Assembly: GCA_049511795.1 (NCBI GenBank)
Contig: JBEKXS010000003.1
Span: forward strand, 1-24,296
Direction: 5' to 3'
DNA from: Candidatus Saccharimonadota bacterium
GTDB taxonomy: Archaea > Nanobdellota > Nanobdellia > Pacearchaeales > GW2011-AR1
Length of the DNA: 24,296 nucleotides
Part shown: in pieces, positions 1-24,296 of the stretch
How the letters are laid out: every line of letters begins with the position of its first letter
Position numbering within the stretch: position 1 is the first letter of the stretch
The notes under the pieces: model-generated
Told to the model about the DNA's origin: nothing
Databases searched by the model: none
The model's input: the letters and a program-made list of their open reading frames with translations, nothing else
Program-made: the position numbers and the translations under genes

Positions 1-122
1 ACAAGATAGCCGAATATCGTAGAAAGAACAAAGACAAGATAGCCGAACAAAAAGCTGAATATTATAGAAAGAACAAAGACAAGATAGCTGAATATTTAGC
101 TGAATATTATAGAAAGAACAAA
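1..122. repeat. Terminal direct overlap; nt 1-122 are identical to nt 24175-24296 (circular closure or terminal redundancy)
   Basis: Base-by-base comparison of both ends. The overlap lies inside a coding tandem-repeat array, but unique flanks on both sides fit one continuous ORF. Confidence 0.9.
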
Positions 123-188
123 AGGCAGAGAATGTCAGAGAGATATTCAAAATTACTAAAAGGGGGTCTCAATTCCTCCCAAGCTTGA
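3..188 (+). CDS. 3' part of the KIAEY/YRKNKDKI repeat protein (continuation of 23943..24296 across the junction); ends ...RQRMSERYSKLLKGGLNSSQA*
   Basis: Open frame from the window edge to TGA at 186-188. The frame matches 23943+3n once the 24174-nt offset is applied. The last 9 codons are shared with the methyltransferase gene. Confidence 0.7.
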   Translation, partial: KIAEYRRKNKDKIAEQKAEYYRKNKDKIAEYLAEYYRKNKRQRMSERYSKLLKGGLNSSQA

Positions 189-219
189 AAGCATGGGTAT
201 CCTTGAGACGATTATATGA
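158..219 (+). repeat. 62-nt gene-boundary element, copy 1 (identical to 3443-3504); long imperfect hairpin
   Basis: Perfect 62/62 identity. Outer stem is GTCTCAA (166-172) with TTGAGAC (203-209). Inner stem is CCCAAGC with GCATGGG (one mismatch). The upstream TGA stop lies in the loop and the downstream ATG (216) is inside the repeat. Confidence 0.9.
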
Positions 220-407
220 CACAAAAACAAATAACAAAACAAGAAGAGTTTAATGAAGCAACAAAACCAATTAGAAAATATGTAACAACTATTCCCATTC
301 TTTTGATAGGATTTACTGTTCTATTTGGTTTTCCATTTGGAATTAATTTAATGTCTATTCCTATATTTTCATTGGGAATTATAAATTGGATATATTATTC
401 AAAATGA
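216..407 (+). CDS. Small membrane protein (63 aa) with MTQKQ leader
   Basis: ORF track. Has a hydrophobic C-terminal two thirds. The start ATGACACAAAAACAAA is shared with ORFs at 20350 and 23775. Confidence 0.55.
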   Translation: MTQKQITKQEEFNEATKPIRKYVTTIPILLIGFTVLFGFPFGINLMSIPIFSLGIINWIYYSK

Positions 408-550
408 CAACACAAAAAACAAACACACGAGGGGGAACACAAACCCCCCAGAAAAACACAGAAACAAAGAAGAAGAAATGTAGAACTTGTTTAATTCCTT
501 TAATTCCAAATCATCCTAAATTAAATAAGATTATTCACTTTTTATGCTAA
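404..550 (+). CDS. Hypothetical 48-aa protein (MTTQKTNTRGG...CRTC...)
   Basis: ATGA overlap with the previous stop (405-407). Manually translated. Short, and contains a G5/C6 hairpin. Confidence 0.3.
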   Translation: MTTQKTNTRGGTQTPQKNTETKKKKCRTCLIPLIPNHPKLNKIIHFLC

Positions 551-551
551 A

Positions 552-599
552 ATGACGACTGAAACAGAAATCTTCGGCGATGATGCTGAATTAAAATGA
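552..599 (+). other. 15-codon mini-ORF whose first 19 nt (ATGACGACTGAAACAGAAA) equal the start of the gene at 22242; probable recombination remnant
   Basis: Direct sequence identity between 552-570 and 22242-22260. The ORF stops after MTTETEIFGDDAELK. Confidence 0.35.
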
Positions 600-629
600 A
601 GCCACAAAAACGGAGAAAATTTAGATAAC

Positions 630-1517
630 ATGGAAAAAAAAGAGGTAGATAAAGAAGTAAAAGTCCAAAAGTCAAGCTTTTACTTGTTCTTATTCAATCG
701 CATCAAGGAGGGAAAAACACCTTCTTCTATTTCTAAGGAGTATCAAATCCCTAAGCAAAAGCTCCAATATTATCTAAATCAGCTGAAGAAAGGAGGTTTC
801 ATAGAAAAAGTCGGTTACAAATCATGGAAAGTAAAAGTAAAAGAGTTCTCGTTAGGAACGAGACCGACAACCAACCTTCATGCCTTACAAATCAATATTC
901 CTATTCTTTCAGGGGAAATCAAGGGGTCGGACTGGGAAGTAAAAGAAGAATTAAGAAACTGGACTCCAAAATACAAAACTTTGGACATCTTAGGAGGTCT
1001 TACCATTAAAAACAATAATAATAAATCTATCAGCATCTTTGCTCATTCAAGGGATTTGAAGGAGTTGAAGGAGATTGATGCCCTTTCTTATGATATAGTA
1101 AATTTCGCATTAGAATGGTTTAAGCGAGACTTTAATGTAACTCTTGACTTGTTCAATGCAGAAGTCAAATCTCTTCATATCGCCACTCAAGATAAAGTAA
1201 GCGAAGATATGCAGAAGCAAGGAGATAGGTTTGAATTGGACTTGCAGAAGAAGGCAGAAAAGGTTTTTCCTAAAGATAAGATAGACGGAAAAGCATGGAT
1301 TGATGGTTCTCCTTTCACTTTTACAGCAGAAACAAATGATAAGGAATGGAAAAGAGCTTACTTGTCTATGCCTTTTATGATGGAAGAAATAGCAAAAGCA
1401 ACCCATTATATCGCATTAAACTATGCTTCCCATGTCAAACTGGTAGAAAAAGCAAGTAAAGTAATGGAGAAGCTGGATAAAAGATTATCTCAAACTAAAT
1501 TAACGGAGTTCCTATGA
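630..1517 (+). CDS. 295-aa protein with N-terminal winged-helix-like DNA-binding region; candidate regulator or replication-initiation protein
   Basis: The N-terminus, ...TPSSISKEYQIPKQKLQYYLNQLKKGGFIEKVGY, looks like a wHTH. It is first in an ATGA-coupled operon. No HUH or polymerase motifs were seen. Confidence 0.6.
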   Translation: MEKKEVDKEVKVQKSSFYLFLFNRIKEGKTPSSISKEYQIPKQKLQYYLNQLKKGGFIEKVGYKSWKVKVKEFSLGTRPTTNLHALQINIPILSGEIKGSDWEVKEELRNWTPKYKTLDILGGLTIKNNNNKSISIFAHSRDLKELKEIDALSYDIVNFALEWFKRDFNVTLDLFNAEVKSLHIATQDKVSEDMQKQGDRFELDLQKKAEKVFPKDKIDGKAWIDGSPFTFTAETNDKEWKRAYLSMPFMMEEIAKATHYIALNYASHVKLVEKASKVMEKLDKRLSQTKLTEFL

Positions 1518-1714
1518 CACTTGAACAATCAGTTTCTTCAAATCCAGATCCAGCAATTCGTTTTTATGAAAGCAACCTTACAGAAGAAGAAATAGCAAAG
1601 CTAAAGCTATTCTCCAAGACAGAGGAAGACTATGTATCCAGGTTGATTGATGCTTACAAGATGACTTTTCTAAACAAGAGATATGAGATAGTAAGAGGAG
1701 AAGAAGAATTATGA
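1514..1714 (+). CDS. Hypothetical 66-aa acidic protein
   Basis: ORF track; ATGA overlaps at both ends. Confidence 0.55.
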   Translation: MTLEQSVSSNPDPAIRFYESNLTEEEIAKLKLFSKTEEDYVSRLIDAYKMTFLNKRYEIVRGEEEL

Positions 1715-1953
1715 AGCAGCAGCTAATTCCCCAAGTTCAGAAAAAACCAATCATTAGAGTTCTCTGTCCTTACTGCCAGAAGAACTATTTGGTTTTGAGA
1801 AATAGACAATCAAACTTGAACCTTTCTTTTTTTGTAAGAAAATGGAAGGAAGAAAGAGAATGGCATTGCTCTGGCGGATGTATTTCTTCTTTCCCTGAAA
1901 ACTACTTTGATGTTTTTCCACAGTTTGAGAAATTTGTGGAGAGGAAAGTATGA
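1711..1953 (+). CDS. Small zinc-ribbon-like protein (CPYC ... HCSGGC)
   Basis: ORF track; Cys pairs; ATGA overlaps at both ends. Confidence 0.55.
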   Translation: MKQQLIPQVQKKPIIRVLCPYCQKNYLVLRNRQSNLNLSFFVRKWKEEREWHCSGGCISSFPENYFDVFPQFEKFVERKV

Positions 1954-2057
1954 AAGAAAAAATACAGAAAATCTTGTTCAAGATAGGAGAAGCAATCCTT
2001 ACAGGATTAGGAGTTACAATAGGCGCTTACTTGGCAGGAGTAGTGATAAGAAGATGA
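1950..2057 (+). CDS. 35-aa single-pass membrane peptide (MKEKIQKILFKIGEAILTGLGVTIGAYLAGVVIRR)
   Basis: Manually found. The ATG overlaps the previous TGA (1951-1953), and its TGA (2055-2057) overlaps the recombinase ATG (2054). Confidence 0.4.
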   Translation: MKEKIQKILFKIGEAILTGLGVTIGAYLAGVVIRR

Positions 2058-2596
2058 AAGTTTGTTTATATGCAAGAGTTTCAAAAGAAGAAGAAGGAAT
2101 GCAAGACCCAAACAATCAGCTTATTCCTTTAAGAAAATTCTGTGAATCAATGCAATGGGAAATAAAAAAAGAATTTATTGACAGGGCTTCTGGAGGTTCT
2201 GCAAACAGACCAGCATTTCAATTAATGTTAAGTGAAGTAAAGCAAAGGCATTTTGATTTGATTCTTATTTGGGCATTAGACAGATTTTCAAGAGAAGGAA
2301 TTGTTAGCACATTAAAATATTGCCAACTTCTTAATGATTATAAAACTTCCTTAAAGAGTCTGCAGGAATCATGGTTAGATACAAGAGATGAAGGCATGGG
2401 GCAATTAATGTTGGCAATGATGGCTTGGTTTGCCCAACAAGAAAGAAAAAGAATAAGTGATAGAACAAAAGCAGGATTAAAACAAAAGAAAGAAGAAGGG
2501 AAGATTTTGGGAAGACCAAAGGGATGGAGAAAAAGTAAAATAAAAGGGGTTCAAAATCCTTCTTATAAAAACACTCAAAAAGAGGTAGAGGTTTAG
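2054..2596 (+). CDS. Small serine recombinase (resolvase/invertase catalytic domain), 180 aa
   Basis: MKVCLYARVSKEEEG (catalytic Ser context), DRASG, LIWALDRFSREG, and the E-helix QQERKRISDRTKAGL...GRPKG. I prefer the ATG at 2054 over the track start at 1907. The C-terminal tail is short with no obvious HTH. Confidence 0.8.
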   Translation: MKVCLYARVSKEEEGMQDPNNQLIPLRKFCESMQWEIKKEFIDRASGGSANRPAFQLMLSEVKQRHFDLILIWALDRFSREGIVSTLKYCQLLNDYKTSLKSLQESWLDTRDEGMGQLMLAMMAWFAQQERKRISDRTKAGLKQKKEEGKILGRPKGWRKSKIKGVQNPSYKNTQKEVEV

Positions 2597-2636
2597 ATGT
2601 CCGTTTAATATGCAATTTGAAATAATCCAACTAAAA

Positions 2637-2789
2637 ATGGGAGGATGGAAGAAACTGAAATTTCCAAGAAGATGCAAAGTATGCAACAAAGTATTAGGCA
2701 AACAGAACAAATCAGGAATCTGCTCTAATTGCTCTCTTGAAATTCGTCAAAAAAATCAACATGACATACTCCCATACCCTAAAGGGTAG
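2637..2789 (+). CDS. 50-aa zinc-ribbon protein (CKVC...CSNC)
   Basis: Manual translation gives MGGWKKLKFPRRCKVCNKVLGKQNKSGICSNCSLEIRQKNQHDILPYPKG*. Its 3' end runs into the 50-nt boundary element. Confidence 0.4.
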   Translation: MGGWKKLKFPRRCKVCNKVLGKQNKSGICSNCSLEIRQKNQHDILPYPKG

Positions 2790-2810
2790 GGTATCTTAAA
2801 GAAAATGGAA
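2761..2810 (+). repeat. 50-nt gene-boundary element, copy 1 (identical to 23899-23948) with a dyad-symmetric core
   Basis: Perfect 50/50 identity. Hairpin is ATACCCTA (2774-2781) with TAGGGTAT (2787-2794). An overlapping palindrome TACCCT-AA-AGGGTA spans 2775-2788. The element ends with ATGGAA, the first 2 codons of the downstream gene. Confidence 0.9.
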
Positions 2811-3473
2811 ACAAAAACAATAAAGATTTTGAATTTATATGCTGGAATTGGTGGAAATAGAAAACTATGGACAGGAGATATAGAAGTTACGGCAGTAGAG
2901 AATGTTCCAGAGATAGCTAAGATATACCAAGACTTTTTCCCTAATGATAAGGTAATAGTAACAGATGCACACCAATTTTTATTAGAACATTTTAAAGAAT
3001 TTGATTTTATATGGAGTTCTCCACCTTGTCCAAGTCATAGTAGGATAAATACTATGTTAGTAAATGGAAGAGGGTTTAAAGCAAAGTTTCCAGATATGAA
3101 ACTTTATGAAGAGATATTGTTTCTACAAGCATACTTTAAAGGGAAATGGATTGTTGAGAATGTTAGAAGTTTTTATACTCCTTTAATTAAACCACAAGAA
3201 AGAGGTAGACATTATTATTGGAGTAATTTTGAGATAGGATATTTAGGAAAAAGTAAGAAAGTTAGGAATGATAAAGGTTCAATTTTGAGTTTAAAAATGA
3301 AAGATAGAGAAATGGTTGTTAGTGATTTTAAAGATTATAAAGGGGATAAAAGGACTTTGATAAATAATTGTGTAGAACCTATTGTAGGATTATTAATATT
3401 TGAAATGGCTTTCAAGAAACCACAAAAAACTTTATTAGAACAAAAAGGGGGTCTCAATTCCTCCCAAGCTTGA
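2805..3473 (+). CDS. Compact DNA (cytosine-5) methyltransferase, 222 aa; no adjacent restriction endonuclease recognised
   Basis: Motif I LNLYAGIGGN; motif IV SSPPCPSHS (Pro-Cys); motif VI IVENV; motif VIII-like QERGRHYYW; motif X-like NNCVEPIVGLLIF. The target-recognition region is very short. Confidence 0.8.
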   Translation: METKTIKILNLYAGIGGNRKLWTGDIEVTAVENVPEIAKIYQDFFPNDKVIVTDAHQFLLEHFKEFDFIWSSPPCPSHSRINTMLVNGRGFKAKFPDMKLYEEILFLQAYFKGKWIVENVRSFYTPLIKPQERGRHYYWSNFEIGYLGKSKKVRNDKGSILSLKMKDREMVVSDFKDYKGDKRTLINNCVEPIVGLLIFEMAFKKPQKTLLEQKGGLNSSQA

Positions 3474-3504
3474 AAGCATGGGTATCCTTGAGACGATTAT
3501 ATGA
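3443..3504 (+). repeat. 62-nt gene-boundary element, copy 2 (identical to 158-219)
   Basis: Perfect identity. Contains the last 9 codons plus stop of the methyltransferase and the ATG (3501) of the next gene. Confidence 0.9.
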
Positions 3505-3806
3505 ACACAAAAGAATTCTTCACTAAGTGGAAGCAGGGAATAGAAGCAATAACACCTTACCAGCAAGTCAGGGGTCAGTTATTCAGCATAATCCCAATCT
3601 TCATAGGAATTATCATAGGAATAATAGTAACAATAAAATCTCATACTTGGTGGCTTGTCTTAATTTTAGGTGGCTCTTTAATCCTGACTTTCTTCCAATT
3701 TATAGGAATGCTGCAAAGATTTTTAAGGTTGAGAGTCCAAAGAGATATTATGAAGTCCATGCAGGATGTGATTCCAGGAGGTTCAAGTGAAACCAAGACT
3801 CCTTAG
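3501..3806 (+). CDS. Membrane protein, 101 aa, two predicted TM helices
   Basis: ORF track; two hydrophobic stretches (IIPIFIGIIIGIIVTI, WWLVLILGGSLILTFFQFIGM). Confidence 0.6.
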   Translation: MNTKEFFTKWKQGIEAITPYQQVRGQLFSIIPIFIGIIIGIIVTIKSHTWWLVLILGGSLILTFFQFIGMLQRFLRLRVQRDIMKSMQDVIPGGSSETKTP

Positions 3807-4006: not shown

Positions 4007-4525
4007 ATGGTAAATAATTGTTTATGGTGTGGAGAACCAATTTTAGAAGGAATAAATAGGGAATATCATCCAATTTGTGTTAAAAGGAAATATAATTTTA
4101 ATAATAGAAAAAAAGCATCAGAGTATTTCCAAAAGAACAAGGAGAAGATTTATTCAGTTAAGAGAATTTATAACATTAAAAATAAGGAAAAAATAGATGA
4201 AATAAAAAGAAAGTATAGGATAAAGAATAGGGAAATTCTAAATAAAAAGGCATTAAAACATTCTAAAAAAAATAGAGACAAAATAAATAAATATCATAAA
4301 GAATGGAAGAAAAATAACAAAAAGATAGTTAATGCAGAAAATCAGGCATCTATAAAAATTCAATTATTAGATTCTTGTCAAATTTGTGGAAGTAAAGAGA
4401 ATCTACAAAGACATCACTGGGATTATAACAGACCATTATTAGTTACTACTTTATGTAAAGATTGTCATAGAATTCAACATATAAAGAACTTTGAAAACAG
4501 TTTCTTTGGGAGGGTATCTTGTTAG
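4007..4525 (+). CDS. HNH endonuclease with a Lys-rich KNKEKI-type repeat region
   Basis: N-terminal CLWCGE...C. The central region has repeated (Y)xxKNKEKI / KNREIL / KNRDKI motifs. C-terminal CQICG...LQRHHWDYN...CKDCHRIQH fits an HNH/beta-beta-alpha-Me motif. Confidence 0.8.
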   Translation: MVNNCLWCGEPILEGINREYHPICVKRKYNFNNRKKASEYFQKNKEKIYSVKRIYNIKNKEKIDEIKRKYRIKNREILNKKALKHSKKNRDKINKYHKEWKKNNKKIVNAENQASIKIQLLDSCQICGSKENLQRHHWDYNRPLLVTTLCKDCHRIQHIKNFENSFFGRVSC

Positions 4526-5273: not shown

Positions 5274-6140
5274 TTAGCCGTGTTTTTCCGACACTTCGCC
5301 GTCATTTTCTTCTGAGGTATCGGAGTATTCTTCAAGTATCTTGTAAATTTCAGCACGGCTCAAGCCACAAATCTCTGAAATCTCCTTTGCAGGTATTCTT
5401 TTCTTTTCTTTTAGGTAGACTATCAGCTTATTCCTTTGCTGAACCTTCTTATCCTGGTTCTGTTTGTTCTTTGATTGTTCAATCAGATGCTTTCCTTTCA
5501 TCTTCTCATACAAATCCCAGTCAGCAATCCATTTCTTTGTATATCTTCCCCTGAAGTTAGGTTTCTCTGCATTGTAATCAACAAACTTGTTCCCTTTGAC
5601 ATACAATTTCCTTTTTTCATCCCTTCCGAAAGCTGCAAAGTAACCTCTTTCAAAAGAATCAGAATAAACAACGAACAAATGCGAAGTCCTGAAGATAGCA
5701 ATGCCTTTAGACAAGTCAAAGAAATTAGGAAGGCAAAGAATAATGAATAATCCTTTCTGCCTTATTAGTTGCAGATGGTTTACAATCCTTAAAAATTCAG
5801 CAGAGCTTGAAACTCTTGAATTTAAGCTCTCAAAAGATTCATCAAGCATGAAAGCCATACCTGTTTTGGCATCAGGACTTGCTGTTCTTTCAATCAATCC
5901 ATTTTCTCCTGTTCCTGTAAAGCATATTCTGTCTTTTGCATTGAATGAAGGGTCAAGAAACTTGCATATCTGCTGTGTGAATGTAGATTTCCCTGTTCCT
6001 GGAATCCCTGCGACAATAGCCAAGTAATCCCATCCCCTTTTCAATACAGAATTTTTTACAGCTTCAAGATTTTCCTTTAATGTTTCATCAATATACATTT
6101 CATCATCAGAACCATCATCTCTTTTTGCAGGGACTATCAT
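5274..6140 (-). CDS. P-loop NTPase (AAA/DnaA-like ATPase) with a C-terminal HTH-like tail, 288 aa
   Basis: Walker A is VAGIPGTGKST; Walker B is MAFMLDES. The C-terminal ...IPAKEISEICGLSRAEIYKILEEY looks like an HTH. Size and position are reminiscent of the conserved fusellovirus DnaA-like ATPase (an inference). Confidence 0.75.
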   Translation of the reverse strand: MIVPAKRDDGSDDEMYIDETLKENLEAVKNSVLKRGWDYLAIVAGIPGTGKSTFTQQICKFLDPSFNAKDRICFTGTGENGLIERTASPDAKTGMAFMLDESFESLNSRVSSSAEFLRIVNHLQLIRQKGLFIILCLPNFFDLSKGIAIFRTSHLFVVYSDSFERGYFAAFGRDEKRKLYVKGNKFVDYNAEKPNFRGRYTKKWIADWDLYEKMKGKHLIEQSKNKQNQDKKVQQRNKLIVYLKEKKRIPAKEISEICGLSRAEIYKILEEYSDTSEENDGEVSEKHG

Positions 6141-6646: not shown

Positions 6647-6868
6647 ATGTTAGGAAATTTAATAACTGGGTTCTTGATTATTCTCGTTGGAGTAAATTTA
6701 GCCCCAACAGTTGCTAACCAGGTAGCTGCACAGACAAGCAATACAAACTTCACAAACGGCTCTTCTGCTGTTCTTAGTTTGGTTACATTGTTCTTTGTCC
6801 TTGCAGTCGCTGTAGCAGCAATGGATATAGCTGTCGTTGGACTCAGACAATCAGGACTTATAATTTAA
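6647..6868 (+). CDS. Major capsid protein candidate 1, fusellovirus VP1/VP3-like two-helix hydrophobic protein (73 aa)
   Basis: MLGNLITGFLIILVGVNLAPTVANQV...NFTNGSSAVLSLVTLFFVLAVAVAAMDIAVVGL. This matches the SSV1 VP1 pattern recalled from memory (..LIGIVLLPVIVSQV .. ATLLNLVPLFYILVLIIVPAVV). Confidence 0.7.
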   Translation: MLGNLITGFLIILVGVNLAPTVANQVAAQTSNTNFTNGSSAVLSLVTLFFVLAVAVAAMDIAVVGLRQSGLII

Positions 6869-6888: not shown

Positions 6889-7152
6889 ATGTTAGGAAAT
6901 TTAATTACAGGATTCTTGATTATCTTGGTTGGAGTGAATATAGCTCCAACAGTCGCATCACAAGTCCAGGTAGCAGTTTATCCATGGTCAAACGGAACAG
7001 GGCCAGGAGCAAACTTGACCCCAAGCGATAACTTCACAAACGGTTCAGGAGCAGTGCTTACACTTGTAACACTATTCTTCGTTTTGGCAGTTGCTGTTGC
7101 TGCGATGGATATTGCAGTAGTAGGCCTTAGACAATCAGGACTCGTCATATAA
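6889..7152 (+). CDS. Major capsid protein candidate 2 (paralog, 87 aa) with a longer inter-helix loop
   Basis: N- and C-terminal helices are nearly identical to 6647..6868. The loop carries a 14-aa insertion. Confidence 0.7.
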   Translation: MLGNLITGFLIILVGVNIAPTVASQVQVAVYPWSNGTGPGANLTPSDNFTNGSGAVLTLVTLFFVLAVAVAAMDIAVVGLRQSGLVI

Positions 7153-19884: not shown

Positions 19885-20213
19885 CAACCTATGAAGCAGT
19901 AGAAGAAGTATTGGAAGAGAACGAAAAGGCCAGAGATGACGATTTTCTCCTATGTGTTCATGTTTATCTCAAGCTCGGCTTCGCCCACAGAATCCCATTA
20001 GGCATAGTCATTCATTATGACAAGATAGAGTTTGCCCCTGCCTTTGAAACTATTACAAGATGCAGAAGACTGATACAAAATAGAGAGAAACGATTAAGAG
20101 CAACACCTGAAACAGAATTAAGAAGACTAAACAGGGAGATTGAACTGCATACATACTTCTCAAGCAAATCAACTAAATTAGATAGCTTTCCAGGAAGCTG
20201 GATGTTAGGATGA
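19881..20213 (+). CDS. Hypothetical 110-aa protein; its C-terminal 33 codons are duplicated at 21350-21450
   Basis: ORF track; ATGA overlaps; internal motif ITRCRRLIQNREKRLRATPE. Confidence 0.6.
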   Translation: MTTYEAVEEVLEENEKARDDDFLLCVHVYLKLGFAHRIPLGIVIHYDKIEFAPAFETITRCRRLIQNREKRLRATPETELRRLNREIELHTYFSSKSTKLDSFPGSWMLG

Positions 20214-20353
20214 CAGCACAAAAAGCTAAAGATACAGAATCGTTTTTTAGAGAAATACAATTAAGAGGAATGATAGCAAAGCAAAGTCCTTTTTATTGGA
20301 TAAGATATAAGATTTATAGGATAAAAGAATATCTATATTATTATTTAACATGA
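20210..20353 (+). CDS. Hypothetical 47-aa protein
   Basis: Manual; ATGA overlaps at both ends. Confidence 0.35.
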   Translation: MTAQKAKDTESFFREIQLRGMIAKQSPFYWIRYKIYRIKEYLYYYLT

Positions 20354-20425
20354 CACAAAAACAAACAAAACAAACAGAGGAGAGCAAAGAATGAAAACTA
20401 AAAAAGAAATACTAAAGATGACTGA
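20354..20425 (+). repeat. 72-nt perfect repeat, copy 1 (identical to 21585-21656), spanning a leader mini-ORF, the RBS and the first 11 codons of the downstream gene
   Basis: Base-by-base identity checked: CACAAAAACAAACAAAACAAACAGAGGAGAGCAAAGAATGAAAACTAAAAAAGAAATACTAAAGATGACTGA. Confidence 0.9.
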
Positions 20426-20948: not shown

Positions 20949-21374
20949 ATGCCAGAAGGAATAAAGATACGCGCTGTATCTAAGAAAGCTAAAAGGAAAA
21001 AGAAAAGATTAGTTAGACTAACCCTATTTTTGAGAAGATGGATGCCTCCTTTACATATGATTGAGCCATTTATGCTAATCCTTGCATTTGTAATTGTCAC
21101 ACCAACTCTTTTAGGAACTCCCTTTGCATGGCTCTTTGCTTTATGCGCCTTTGAAGTTGCAATGAGGGTTGTAACAAGTGATCTTGAAGAAATATTCAAA
21201 GATGAAATAAAAACAGAAGATATGATTGAAGAAAATAATATCCAAATCTCTCACCTGCAAAGCGATATAAAAAGATTGAGAAGAAAGATGAAAAGGCAGA
21301 AGAAGCTCAACAAACAATTAGAAAAACTGAAAGGAGGCTTCTCCAGAGGCAGAATTAAGAAGATTAAATCATGA
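20949..21374 (+). CDS. Basic N-terminus, TM and coiled-coil protein (141 aa)
   Basis: ORF track; hydrophobic central part; K/R/E-rich heptad-like C-terminus. Confidence 0.55.
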   Translation: MPEGIKIRAVSKKAKRKKKRLVRLTLFLRRWMPPLHMIEPFMLILAFVIVTPTLLGTPFAWLFALCAFEVAMRVVTSDLEEIFKDEIKTEDMIEENNIQISHLQSDIKRLRRKMKRQKKLNKQLEKLKGGFSRGRIKKIKS

Positions 21375-21450
21375 GGTTGAATTGCACACATATTTCTCAA
21401 GTAAATCTGCTCGGATAGACACATTTCCGAATAGCTGGATGAGTCCATGA
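21331..21450 (+). pseudogene. Start-less C-terminal fragment homologous to the end of 19881..20213 (KEASPEAELRRLNHEVELHTYFSSKSARIDTFPNSWMSP*)
   Basis: Ungapped alignment of 21350-21450 with 20113-20213. The frame opens after TGA at 21328-21330 and has no start codon. It is +1 relative to the overlapping ORF 20949..21374. Confidence 0.55.
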
Positions 21451-21581
21451 CACAAACAACTAACCAACCAAATCCCTATAAACAACTAAGAAAAGAAATC
21501 ATACAAATATATTATGAACTTGGAAAAACCTTAGAAAAAGTTGATAGGATATTAAAAAGATTACAGAACGAAACACAATGA
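21447..21581 (+). CDS. Hypothetical 44-aa protein
   Basis: Manual; ATGA overlaps at both ends. Confidence 0.35.
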   Translation: MTQTTNQPNPYKQLRKEIIQIYYELGKTLEKVDRILKRLQNETQ

Positions 21582-21584
21582 CAA

Positions 21585-21656
21585 CACAAAAACAAACAAA
21601 ACAAACAGAGGAGAGCAAAGAATGAAAACTAAAAAAGAAATACTAAAGATGACTGA
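21585..21656 (+). repeat. 72-nt perfect repeat, copy 2 (identical to 20354-20425)
   Basis: Base-by-base identity. Confidence 0.9.
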
Positions 21657-23898: not shown

Positions 23899-23948
23899 AT
23901 GACATACTCCCATACCCTAAAGGGTAGGGTATCTTAAAGAAAATGGAA
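23899..23948 (+). repeat. 50-nt gene-boundary element, copy 2 (identical to 2761-2810)
   Basis: Perfect identity; hairpin at 23912-23932. Confidence 0.9.
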
Positions 23949-24296
23949 CTAAAGCAATTTATAAAACAAATACCAACACCAGAAGAAACACTTGTTGATT
24001 ATGATAAAAAGATAGCCGAACAAAAAGCTGAATATTATAGAAAGAACAAAGACAAGATAGCCGAATATCGTAGAAAGAACAAAGACAAGATAGCCGAATA
24101 TTTAGCTGAATATTATAGAAAGAACAAAGACAAGATAGCCGAATATTTAGCTGAATATTATAGAAAGAACAAAGACAAGATAGCCGAATATCGTAGAAAG
24201 AACAAAGACAAGATAGCCGAACAAAAAGCTGAATATTATAGAAAGAACAAAGACAAGATAGCTGAATATTTAGCTGAATATTATAGAAAGAACAAA
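23943..24296 (+). CDS. 5' part of the KIAEY/YRKNKDKI repeat protein (no stop in window; continues at nt 3..188 if circular)
   Basis: MELKQFIKQIPTPEETLVDYDK, followed by units KIAEQKAEYYRKNKD, KIAEYRRKNKD and KIAEYLAEYYRKNKD. There are 118 complete codons to the window edge. Confidence 0.7.
   Translation, partial: MELKQFIKQIPTPEETLVDYDKKIAEQKAEYYRKNKDKIAEYRRKNKDKIAEYLAEYYRKNKDKIAEYLAEYYRKNKDKIAEYRRKNKDKIAEQKAEYYRKNKDKIAEYLAEYYRKNK
24008..24296 (+). repeat. Coding tandem-repeat array of 33- and 45-bp units (continues into nt 1-125)
   Basis: Unit order read directly: 45a, 33b, 45c, 45c, 33b, 45a, 45c. Confidence 0.85.
24175..24296. repeat. Terminal direct overlap (identical to nt 1-122)
   Basis: See the first feature. 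Confidence 0.9.

Follow-up and report, generated by a model that had tools for sequence, protein, structure and literature searches.

The 24,296-nucleotide stretch analysed here (contig JBEKXS010000003.1, "the window" throughout) carries two pairs of short direct repeats, 62 and 50 nt long, which enclose two single genes, one coding for a repeat protein and one for a DNA methyltransferase. The repeats are very probably the subterminal left-end (LE) and right-end (RE) hairpins of two non-autonomous transposons of the IS200/IS605 superfamily, of the ISC type with IscB and HEARO as in ISGst5, whose passenger genes would be mobilized by the transposase TnpA in trans. The canonical top strand, which is the minus strand of the window, would in each copy read transposon-adjacent motif (TAM; T/G-TCAT), LE, antisense passenger and RE-TCAT, with the transposon boundaries directly after the TAM and after the TCAT of RE. 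The methyltransferase or the repeat protein appears to stand where tnpA, iscB or tnpB would be. Each cassette sits exactly 5' of an ATGA start codon (at 216 and 3501). A preliminary description of this DNA had proposed an excisable module driven by a serine recombinase; that story gives way to a testable one, cargo-carrying single-strand transposon ends.

The termini of the window share an overlap of 122 nt (1–122 is identical to 24175–24296), and the molecule is therefore circular with a length of ~24,174 bp (~24.17 kb). This overlap falls within a 45/33-nt tandem repeat of the repeat-protein gene. The circular ~24.2-kb element was binned with a metagenome-assembled genome (MAG) of Pacearchaeota (DPANN), and an identical copy of its winged helix-turn-helix (wHTH) protein is labelled Candidatus Pacearchaeota MAG at NCBI. 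A near-identical genome has been assembled at least nine times from several samples, with the module between the repeats and both cassettes present in every one.

Sequence comparison agrees with the preliminary description on the two exact direct-repeat pairs, their orientation and their spacing. In the 62-nt element, a 58-nt core at 162–219 is exactly repeated at 3447–3504, and the similarity widens to 76 nt (155–230 versus 3440–3515, 92% identity); the 50-nt element at 2761–2810 is exactly repeated at 23899–23948. No repeat pair of this kind occurred in 100 dinucleotide shuffles. All four copies lie on the plus strand, 3,285 bp (62-nt pair) and 3,036 bp (50-nt pair) apart on the circle. Open reading frame (ORF) and domain calls likewise reproduce the gene order and the module content described earlier (a transmembrane protein, the wHTH protein, Zn-ribbon proteins and the recombinase): around the circle come a 50-nt element, the repeat-protein gene (from 23943 across the junction to 188), a 62-nt element, the module (216–2760), the second 50-nt element, the methyltransferase gene (2805–3473) and the second 62-nt element. 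Folding predicts hairpins on the same strand in both element types, in line with the dyad symmetry seen before. The features are as follows, with cargo A denoting the repeat protein, cargo B the methyltransferase and SD a Shine-Dalgarno sequence.

23899–23948, plus strand: RE copy A (50-nt element), exact repeat of 2761–2810; element-encoded ATGA at 23899–23902 (reverse complement of TCAT), hairpin at 23909–23929, mini-ORF MTYSHTLKGRVS plus stop codon at 23899–23937, cargo start ATGGAA at 23943.
23943–24296 continued at 123–188, plus strand: cargo A, repeat protein, 139 aa once the 122-nt overlap is collapsed.
1–188, plus strand: 3' part of cargo A, of which 1–122 duplicates the end of the window; TGA stop codon at 186–188 in the LE hairpin loop.
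159–215, plus strand: LE copy A (62-nt element), scoring 63.1 bits (E 6.7e-21) with the covariance model (CM) R1; from 5' to 3', SD-like GGGGG, outer stem GTCTCAA/TTGAGAC, internal loop UUCCU/UAUCC, inner stem-loop CCCAAGCU-UGAA-AGCAUGGG and spacer GATTAT.
216–407, plus strand: 63-aa membrane protein, resident; its ATGA start (216–219) complements the motif GTCAT beside LE copy A.
630–1517, plus strand: wHTH protein; weak Pfam matches to TrmB, DUF4423 and MCM_C wHTH.
2054–2596, plus strand: small serine recombinase, 180 aa, resident; Pfam Resolvase, 7.9e-35, residues 4–150 of 180.
2610–2789, plus strand: Zn-ribbon ORF, 59 aa; its last 9 codons extend into RE copy B.
2761–2810, plus strand: RE copy B; ATGA at 2761–2764, hairpin at 2771–2791, mini-ORF at 2761–2799, cargo start at 2805.
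2805–3473, plus strand: cargo B, C5-cytosine-type DNA methyltransferase, 222 aa.
3444–3500, plus strand: LE copy B, identical to copy A; CM R1 63.1 bits.
3501–3806, plus strand: 101-aa membrane protein, resident; its ATGAA start exactly complements the TAM TTCAT.

Both cassette genes start with ATGGAA inside a 50-nt element and end with ...KGGLNSSQA and a stop codon inside a 62-nt element; unrelated genes have therefore been fused to identical 5' and 3' flanks. Cargo A is made of AEYYRKNKDKI repeats and matches phrog_17714 at 6e-16. Assemblies that otherwise barely differ (L003/L005, L004, L006) give it a length of 72, 124 or 139 aa, either as true variation in copy number or by assembly collapse. 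Cargo B matches Pfam DNA_methylase (2.1e-7) and phrog_363, receives its final 8 codons and its stop codon from LE, and is 43% identical to the RE/LE-flanked methyltransferase of contig L023. The A/T-rich spacer of LE directly abuts the ATG, a position unlike that of a TATA box. Between the cassettes, the LE model matches positions 481–525 weakly (E 0.13), where AAUUCCU...AUCCU flanks and an outer stem are present and the inner hairpin is missing; this may be a decayed LE copy or chance.

The 62-nt element belongs to a widespread family. Scanning IMG/VR with a degenerate pattern of its core, TTCCTCCCA-N(8-22)-GGGTATCC, returned 100 viral matches, 67 of which have a gap of exactly 13 nt; the matches with other gaps look like chance. 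The next ATG is an ATGA in 57 of 58 viral instances, 12 or 13 nt from the core. Instances share one LE architecture. A stretch of SD-like purines precedes the variable outer stem, the internal loop (UUCCU/UAUCC) and the inner stem CCCA-NNNN/NNNN-UGGG, which closes a UAAA or UGAA loop; a spacer of 12–13 nt and ATGA follow. Pairing in the two helices reaches 83.8% of cells over 48 distinct instances, compared with 23–39% when the partner column is slid, and the covariation score (0.54 versus 0.06–0.12 slid) was reached by none of 500 shuffles. Conservation resides in the internal loop and the stem base, not in outer R boxes. CM R1 detects both LE copies of the window at 63 bits and gives partial matches in both 50-nt copies, covering the inner hairpin and GGGUAUC. 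The two element classes therefore share a core, CUCCCA-stem-loop-GGGUAUC. The 50-nt core also occurs upstream of other methyltransferase genes, on two unrelated IMG/VR contigs. Rfam 15 has no match in the window at E ≤ 1, and searches with the element alone and with eight instances (E ≤ 10) gave chance-level matches only, as did a BLAST search of a common element variant against GenBank phages (18-nt matches). An LE-like element (E 5e-9) also lies on the minus strand in an intergenic gap of L126 (10209–10261) and L127 (7357–7409), where it opposes all surrounding genes and its ATGA opens no real ORF; co-orientation with genes is therefore not universal.

In representative cellular genomes, a stricter pattern (TTCCTCCCANNNNTNAANNNNNGGGTATCC, the core plus three fixed loop bases) located at least 119 loci. 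Hosts among the matches listed include many Woesearchaeota and Nanoarchaeota MAGs, Methanosarcinales, Limosilactobacillus gorillae, Oligoflexus, Ktedonobacteraceae and Chlamydiae. The element stands at many contig ends in the L. gorillae, Methanosarcinales and Woesearchaeota assemblies, and multicopy sets are conserved through ATGA(A) with flanks that diverge directly beyond, which is how an insertion-sequence (IS) terminus behaves.

The genes found just inside the element identify the family. An IscB-type gene lies on the same strand as the element at 31 loci, a TnpB gene on the opposite strand at 19 loci and a Y1 TnpA gene on the same strand at 15 loci, supported by the Pfam matches RRXRR plus HNH (IscB), OrfB_IS605 plus the Cas12f-like TNB domain (TnpB) and Y1_Tnp (TnpA). 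At the opposite end of the IscB elements the Rfam family HEARO, the IscB ωRNA, begins exactly at the terminus, starting with GUCAACUACCC and a hairpin with a CUAAAG loop, the same design as the 50-nt element of the window. HEARO is bounded by the transposon RE, and the IscB TAM of ISGst5 is 5'-TTCAT-3', located 5' of LE (Meers et al., bioRxiv 10.1101/2023.03.14.532601). The position of HEARO at RE and of the TAM 5' of LE therefore identifies the 62-nt element as LE and the 50-nt element as RE. TTCAT is the reverse complement of ATGAA, and the ATGA that follows LE is the target motif read on the other strand; RE itself starts with ATGA in the window and in L141, L067 and L052. The TAM lies 18 nt from the foot of the LE hairpin, and the foot of the RE hairpin 10 nt from the transposon end; both distances are close to the 19 and 10 nt reported for IS608. 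Subterminal hairpins are present on the same strand at both ends, and terminal inverted repeats are absent. Insertion beside a fixed motif of 4–5 nt at LE, with an element-encoded motif at RE and without target-site duplication, likewise agrees with the IS200/IS605 superfamily. Short copies (~490 nt) that hold HEARO and LE and no ORF occur in Methanosarcina, resembling palindrome-associated transposable elements (PATEs).

Several long ORFs upstream of the element that lack Pfam matches proved to be antisense shadows of tnpB. An integron attC array was also discarded, as the window holds no tyrosine recombinase and the architecture differs from R''/L''-L'/R'. Att sites derived from tRNA were rejected too, ARAGORN having returned no tRNA. 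In L093, a single ORF directly upstream of LE (3–581) joins the head domain of a poly(A) polymerase/CCA-adding enzyme to Y1_Tnp with an altered HUH motif (RIHLF); here an IS may have inserted into a nucleotidyltransferase gene.

Elements of this family also carry passengers outside the window. In the viral contigs the upstream ORF enters the element in one of two frames, so that it terminates at a stop codon within the hairpin loop or at the TGA that overlaps ATGA. The genes concerned are of typical accessory kinds and encode DNA methyltransferases of at least five Pfam families, HNH/RRXRR proteins, PAPS reductase and one Y1 transposase. Units in which a 50-nt-class element, a gene and a 62-nt-class element follow each other on one strand, with unrelated cargo, are found on at least eight unrelated contigs. 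A recurrent autonomous form has the order RE-tnpA-cargo-LE, with a TnpA of ~185 aa; its cargo is an N6/N4 methyltransferase (L182), an MT-A70 methyltransferase (L178), a C5 methyltransferase (L068), other methyltransferases (L087, L067), PAPS reductase (L109) or proteins of unknown function. L141, a Woesearchaeota MAG contig (JAGVXT010000010.1), carries an autonomous IS (238–1490, minus strand) with tnpA (Y1_Tnp, 1.8e-33) followed by a methyltransferase and LE. This methyltransferase shares 82% identity with that of the window across 76 N-terminal residues and 50% in the C-terminal part; it is split into two ORFs by a frameshift or an assembly error.

No ORF of the window matches Y1_Tnp, OrfB_IS605 or RRXRR, and HEARO is absent from the window. 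Both window copies, having no tnpA, are therefore non-autonomous. Given relatives such as L141, cassette B is best read as a tnpA-less derivative of an element of that kind, and cassette A as the same chassis with a different passenger. The preliminary description had correctly recognized the repeats as ends of mobile cassettes; its unit, the module together with one cassette, is replaced by two single-gene RE-gene-LE cassettes, and its enzyme, a serine resolvase, by the Y1 HUH transposase with which the IS200/IS605 superfamily moves on single-stranded DNA.

We propose that the copies move, or moved, by single-strand "peel-and-paste" catalysed by a Y1 HUH TnpA supplied in trans by the host or by a co-resident element. 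A different insertion site in L130 and an LE remnant in L252 lend such movement indirect support. Insertion 3' of T(T)CAT on the top strand would place the element directly 5' of an ATGA on the sense strand; landing 5' of a start codon would follow because the TAM complements ATGA(A). The ATGA of RE may restore a stop/start overlap for the upstream gene, and the old ribosome-binding site would then drive the 12-codon mini-ORF MTYSHTLKGRVS, whose end lies 5 nt ahead of the cargo ATG. Its reading frame is preserved in L001, L002, L016 and L017 despite changes in the stem, and a mini-ORF with its own SD is present in the 50-nt class. LE would in turn provide an SD-like motif for the displaced gene, with the hairpin shortening the distance to its ATG. 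Such a motif is found in 65% of instances versus 16% of controls, peaking 6–8 nt before the core. The outer stem, the SD-like motif and ATGA are general features of LE, whether TnpA, IscB, TnpB or cargo only lies inside. Precise excision is predicted to leave the joints ...TTTATGGTAAA to ATGACACAAAAAC (23898 to 216) and ...AAAAAATCAAC to ATGAACACAAAAG (2760 to 3501), and the transposon circle the junction ...TTGAGACGATTAT to ATGACATACTCCC.

Several observations count against this interpretation. The window contains no tnpA, tnpB, iscB or ωRNA, and current mobility therefore depends on an unseen helper. The near-identical assemblies show no excision or new-insertion polymorphism. L125 holds an orthologous methyltransferase at the same position without ends, either through loss of the ends there or through capture of a resident gene. 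An ORF of at least 60 aa opens at the TAM-ATG in 48–49% of instances versus 25–31% of control ATGA sites, a genuine though moderate enrichment. The covarying outer stem is not known as a component of the classical model for IS608 ends. For the SD-hairpin and the mini-ORF a role in translation is putative, and the naming of LE and RE, which draws on orientation logic and one paper, is probable.

An alternative accepts the transposon ends and places the weight on homologous recombination, by host or virus, between the 50–62-bp copies, yielding mini-circles of 3.0–3.3 kb, a deletion derivative of ~21 kb and cargo swaps. We regard this as improbable, although directly repeated copies could in principle recombine and the 100% identical flanks around unrelated cargo are what flank-mediated cassette exchange would give. 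The promoter/stem-loop (PeSL) cassettes of T4-type phages are the closest analogue for the recombination outcomes proposed in the preliminary description: there, short conserved intergenic stem-loops flank accessory genes, and identical copies can drive gene swaps by homologous recombination and the formation of mini-circles, which are documented (PMC2839356; PMC4122927). PeSLs, however, combine a promoter with a terminator in one phage group and are not transposon ends, whereas the window elements are IS ends of a kind that has a defined target motif and occurs in bacteria, archaea and viruses alike. Homologous recombination would produce the chimeric junctions repeat gene-LE-ATGAACACAAAAG and methyltransferase-LE-ATGACACAAAAAC. 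The deletion and circle junctions expected earlier are absent: in 18 public contigs with the 101-aa gene and 9 with the 63-aa gene all junctions are parental, in assemblies that represent majority forms, so that rare events could escape. One candidate deletion junction, on the 708-nt contig L259, proved to be a normal methyltransferase-LE junction. The deletion derivative would also drop the conserved wHTH gene.

It is very unlikely that the repeats are instead a vertically inherited cis-regulatory RNA, an intercistronic device for translational coupling or a terminator that was duplicated within the genome and is not mobile. The near-constant co-orientation of the element with the gene that enters it (in the viral instances examined), the SD-like motif upstream, the fixed distance to ATGA, the strong stem covariation and the mini-ORF with its own SD would all suit such an RNA. 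Yet the element is multicopy at cellular contig ends with flanks diverging after ATGA, is inverted in L126/L127, is tightly linked to TnpA, TnpB, IscB and HEARO, keeps the same features in elements of the TnpB type, whose neighbouring gene lies on the opposite strand, and matches no Rfam family. A device for translation alone, such as a leader-peptide switch or a split ribosome-binding site, was likewise demoted to a secondary property by the cellular multicopy data and the TnpA/IscB/TnpB links. A regulatory role is compatible with transposon-end identity and secondary to it.

Still harder to sustain is a compound transposon, in which TnpA would pair LE copy B (3444–3500) with RE copy A (23899–23948) and move cassette A, the recombinase module and cassette B as one stretch of 3.75 kb. 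The canonical strand reads LE(B)-RE(B)-LE(A)-RE(A), and the outer pair would therefore have the correct polarity for an IS200/IS605 substrate. No relative, however, carries the 3.75-kb block at another location, assembly evidence for it is absent, and in L125 and L252 the genes of the module belong to the syntenic core.

The module itself appears as resident DNA once its relatives are compared. Homologues of the wHTH protein number 198, and the contigs that carry them reach 47 kb (several of 20–47 kb). The protein is therefore the product of a core gene in a family of small DPANN-associated elements, and the gene is a conserved resident, neither an insertion nor part of the transposons. The module also holds small Zn-ribbon ORFs. 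In the serine recombinase Pfam found the catalytic domain only and no helix-turn-helix or other DNA-binding domain. A Zn-ribbon ORF of 59–63 aa trails the recombinase in the window, in L130 (recombinase at 341–892, then the next ORF) and in L132 (3988–4485 and 4544–4723), and its product may be a separate DNA-binding partner of the recombinase. The position equivalent to the recombinase is occupied by a tyrosine integrase in L125 and by ParB in L124 and L254.

Recombinase and elements part company in the relatives. Among ~108 element-bearing viral loci there is no recombinase relative, and a metagenome scan for such relatives returned five short contigs only. L131 and L132 have the recombinase without elements, and in L132 it is paired with the Zn-ribbon ORF. 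In L125 the orthologous methyltransferase (57% identity) comes straight after the tyrosine integrase and has neither LE nor RE. L252 retains the module synteny, with a distant serine recombinase followed directly by the homologue of 3501–3806 and no cassette. Upstream of its wHTH gene (L252:211–233) lies an exact 23-nt remnant that covers the LE terminus plus ATGACA and is identical to 199–221 of the window; the neighbouring proteins are only ~63% identical, and the LE hairpin itself is deleted. L130, finally, carries a complete RE-ORF-LE cassette directly upstream of the recombinase ATGA, compared with downstream in the window; its insertion site is empty in the window, and homology stops exactly at the ATG. 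Relatives that have the module and no flanking elements, named in the preliminary description as evidence against its model, therefore exist. Two insertions happen to flank the recombinase-containing module, which is itself resident DNA.

The reading offered in the preliminary description, that module and one cassette form a composite excisable unit on whose dyad cores the serine recombinase acts resolvase-style, is the least credible of all: direct, exact and dyad-symmetric repeats on either side of a small serine recombinase do recall res sites and serine-recombinase excision modules, and in L130 an element adjoins the recombinase gene, but the elements occur at more than 200 viral, bacterial and archaeal loci with no recombinase relative nearby, recombinase or module persists without elements in L131, L132 and L252, the recombinase has no detectable DNA-binding domain, the module includes the conserved wHTH gene of the family, public assemblies contain no recombinant junctions, and the covarying hairpin with its conserved internal loop has the architecture of a single-strand transposon end, accounted for by Y1 TnpA, IscB and TnpB elements of the IS200/IS605 superfamily.

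Among known systems, the ISC group, represented by ISGst5 of Geobacillus stearothermophilus, shares with the window copies the same-strand subterminal hairpins, the T(T)CAT beside LE, an RE coincident with the 5' hairpin of HEARO, and the common occurrence of TnpA-less copies that are presumably mobilized in trans. The window copies differ in carrying a single passenger gene and no tnpA, iscB, tnpB or ωRNA, in residing in a small virus or plasmid of a DPANN archaeon, and in having an RE of one hairpin that begins with ATGA and forms a mini-ORF before the cargo start. PATEs, which are non-autonomous IS200/IS605 elements, also consist of LE and RE and use TnpA in trans. They lack protein-coding genes (Meers et al., bioRxiv 10.1101/2023.03.14.532601), whereas each window element holds an ORF that is complete and apparently functional, joined to the ends through its first and last codons. 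Already known are the ends, the TAM and HEARO. What appears to be new are the passenger-carrying forms, especially tnpA with a methyltransferase, their occurrence in a small virus or plasmid of DPANN archaea as cassettes of one gene without tnpA, and the start-codon logic of target and ends. A literature search for Y1-TnpA elements with methyltransferase passengers found nothing relevant, which is weak evidence of novelty.

We put forward, tentatively and as a possibility only, the broader view that a lineage of IS200/IS605 elements swapped its RNA-guided nuclease for passengers, above all a methyltransferase together with the Y1 transposase, and shuttles among DPANN archaea, other prokaryotes and viruses with ends evolved for translationally neutral insertion. 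The target would be the complement of a start codon, LE would act as a portable Shine-Dalgarno sequence plus hairpin that rebuilds the ribosome-binding site of the displaced gene, and RE would turn the old start codon into that of a short leader ORF passing ribosomes to the cargo. If these details hold, elements of this kind can hold methyltransferases or accessory genes instead of TnpB or IscB, with autonomous tnpA-plus-methyltransferase forms in DPANN, and such genes are delivered into very small viral or plasmid genomes. A TAM that is a reversed start codon, combined with an SD-bearing LE, may then account for the tolerance of insertions within dense operons. All three points would concern researchers working on IS200/IS605, OMEGA systems and archaeal viruses. 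For annotation, such ends may be recognized by the signature TTCCTCCCA-N13-GGGTATCC-N12/13-ATGA, at present without Rfam coverage.

Elsewhere in the window, a second duplication (20106–20425 versus 21343–21656, ~1.23 kb apart) includes an exact 73-nt repeat (20353–20425 and 21584–21656), which covers the first codons of two small paralogous genes together with the 5' region of each. The start ATGACACAAAAACAAA is common to several small genes (at 216, 20350 and 23775). A pair of neighbouring paralogues (6647–6868 and 6889–7152) encodes hydrophobic proteins of 73 and 87 aa; the two genes share 85% nucleotide identity at their 5' ends and adjoin a P-loop ATPase on the minus strand (5274–6140); the layout recalls the capsid modules of small archaeal viruses, and no family match was obtained. 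An HNH endonuclease at 4007–4525 has N-terminal repeats of the KNKEKI type that resemble those of cargo A (repeat family D3), and both proteins match phrog_17714. The DNA-binding repeat region of this endonuclease may have a nuclease-less relative in cargo A.

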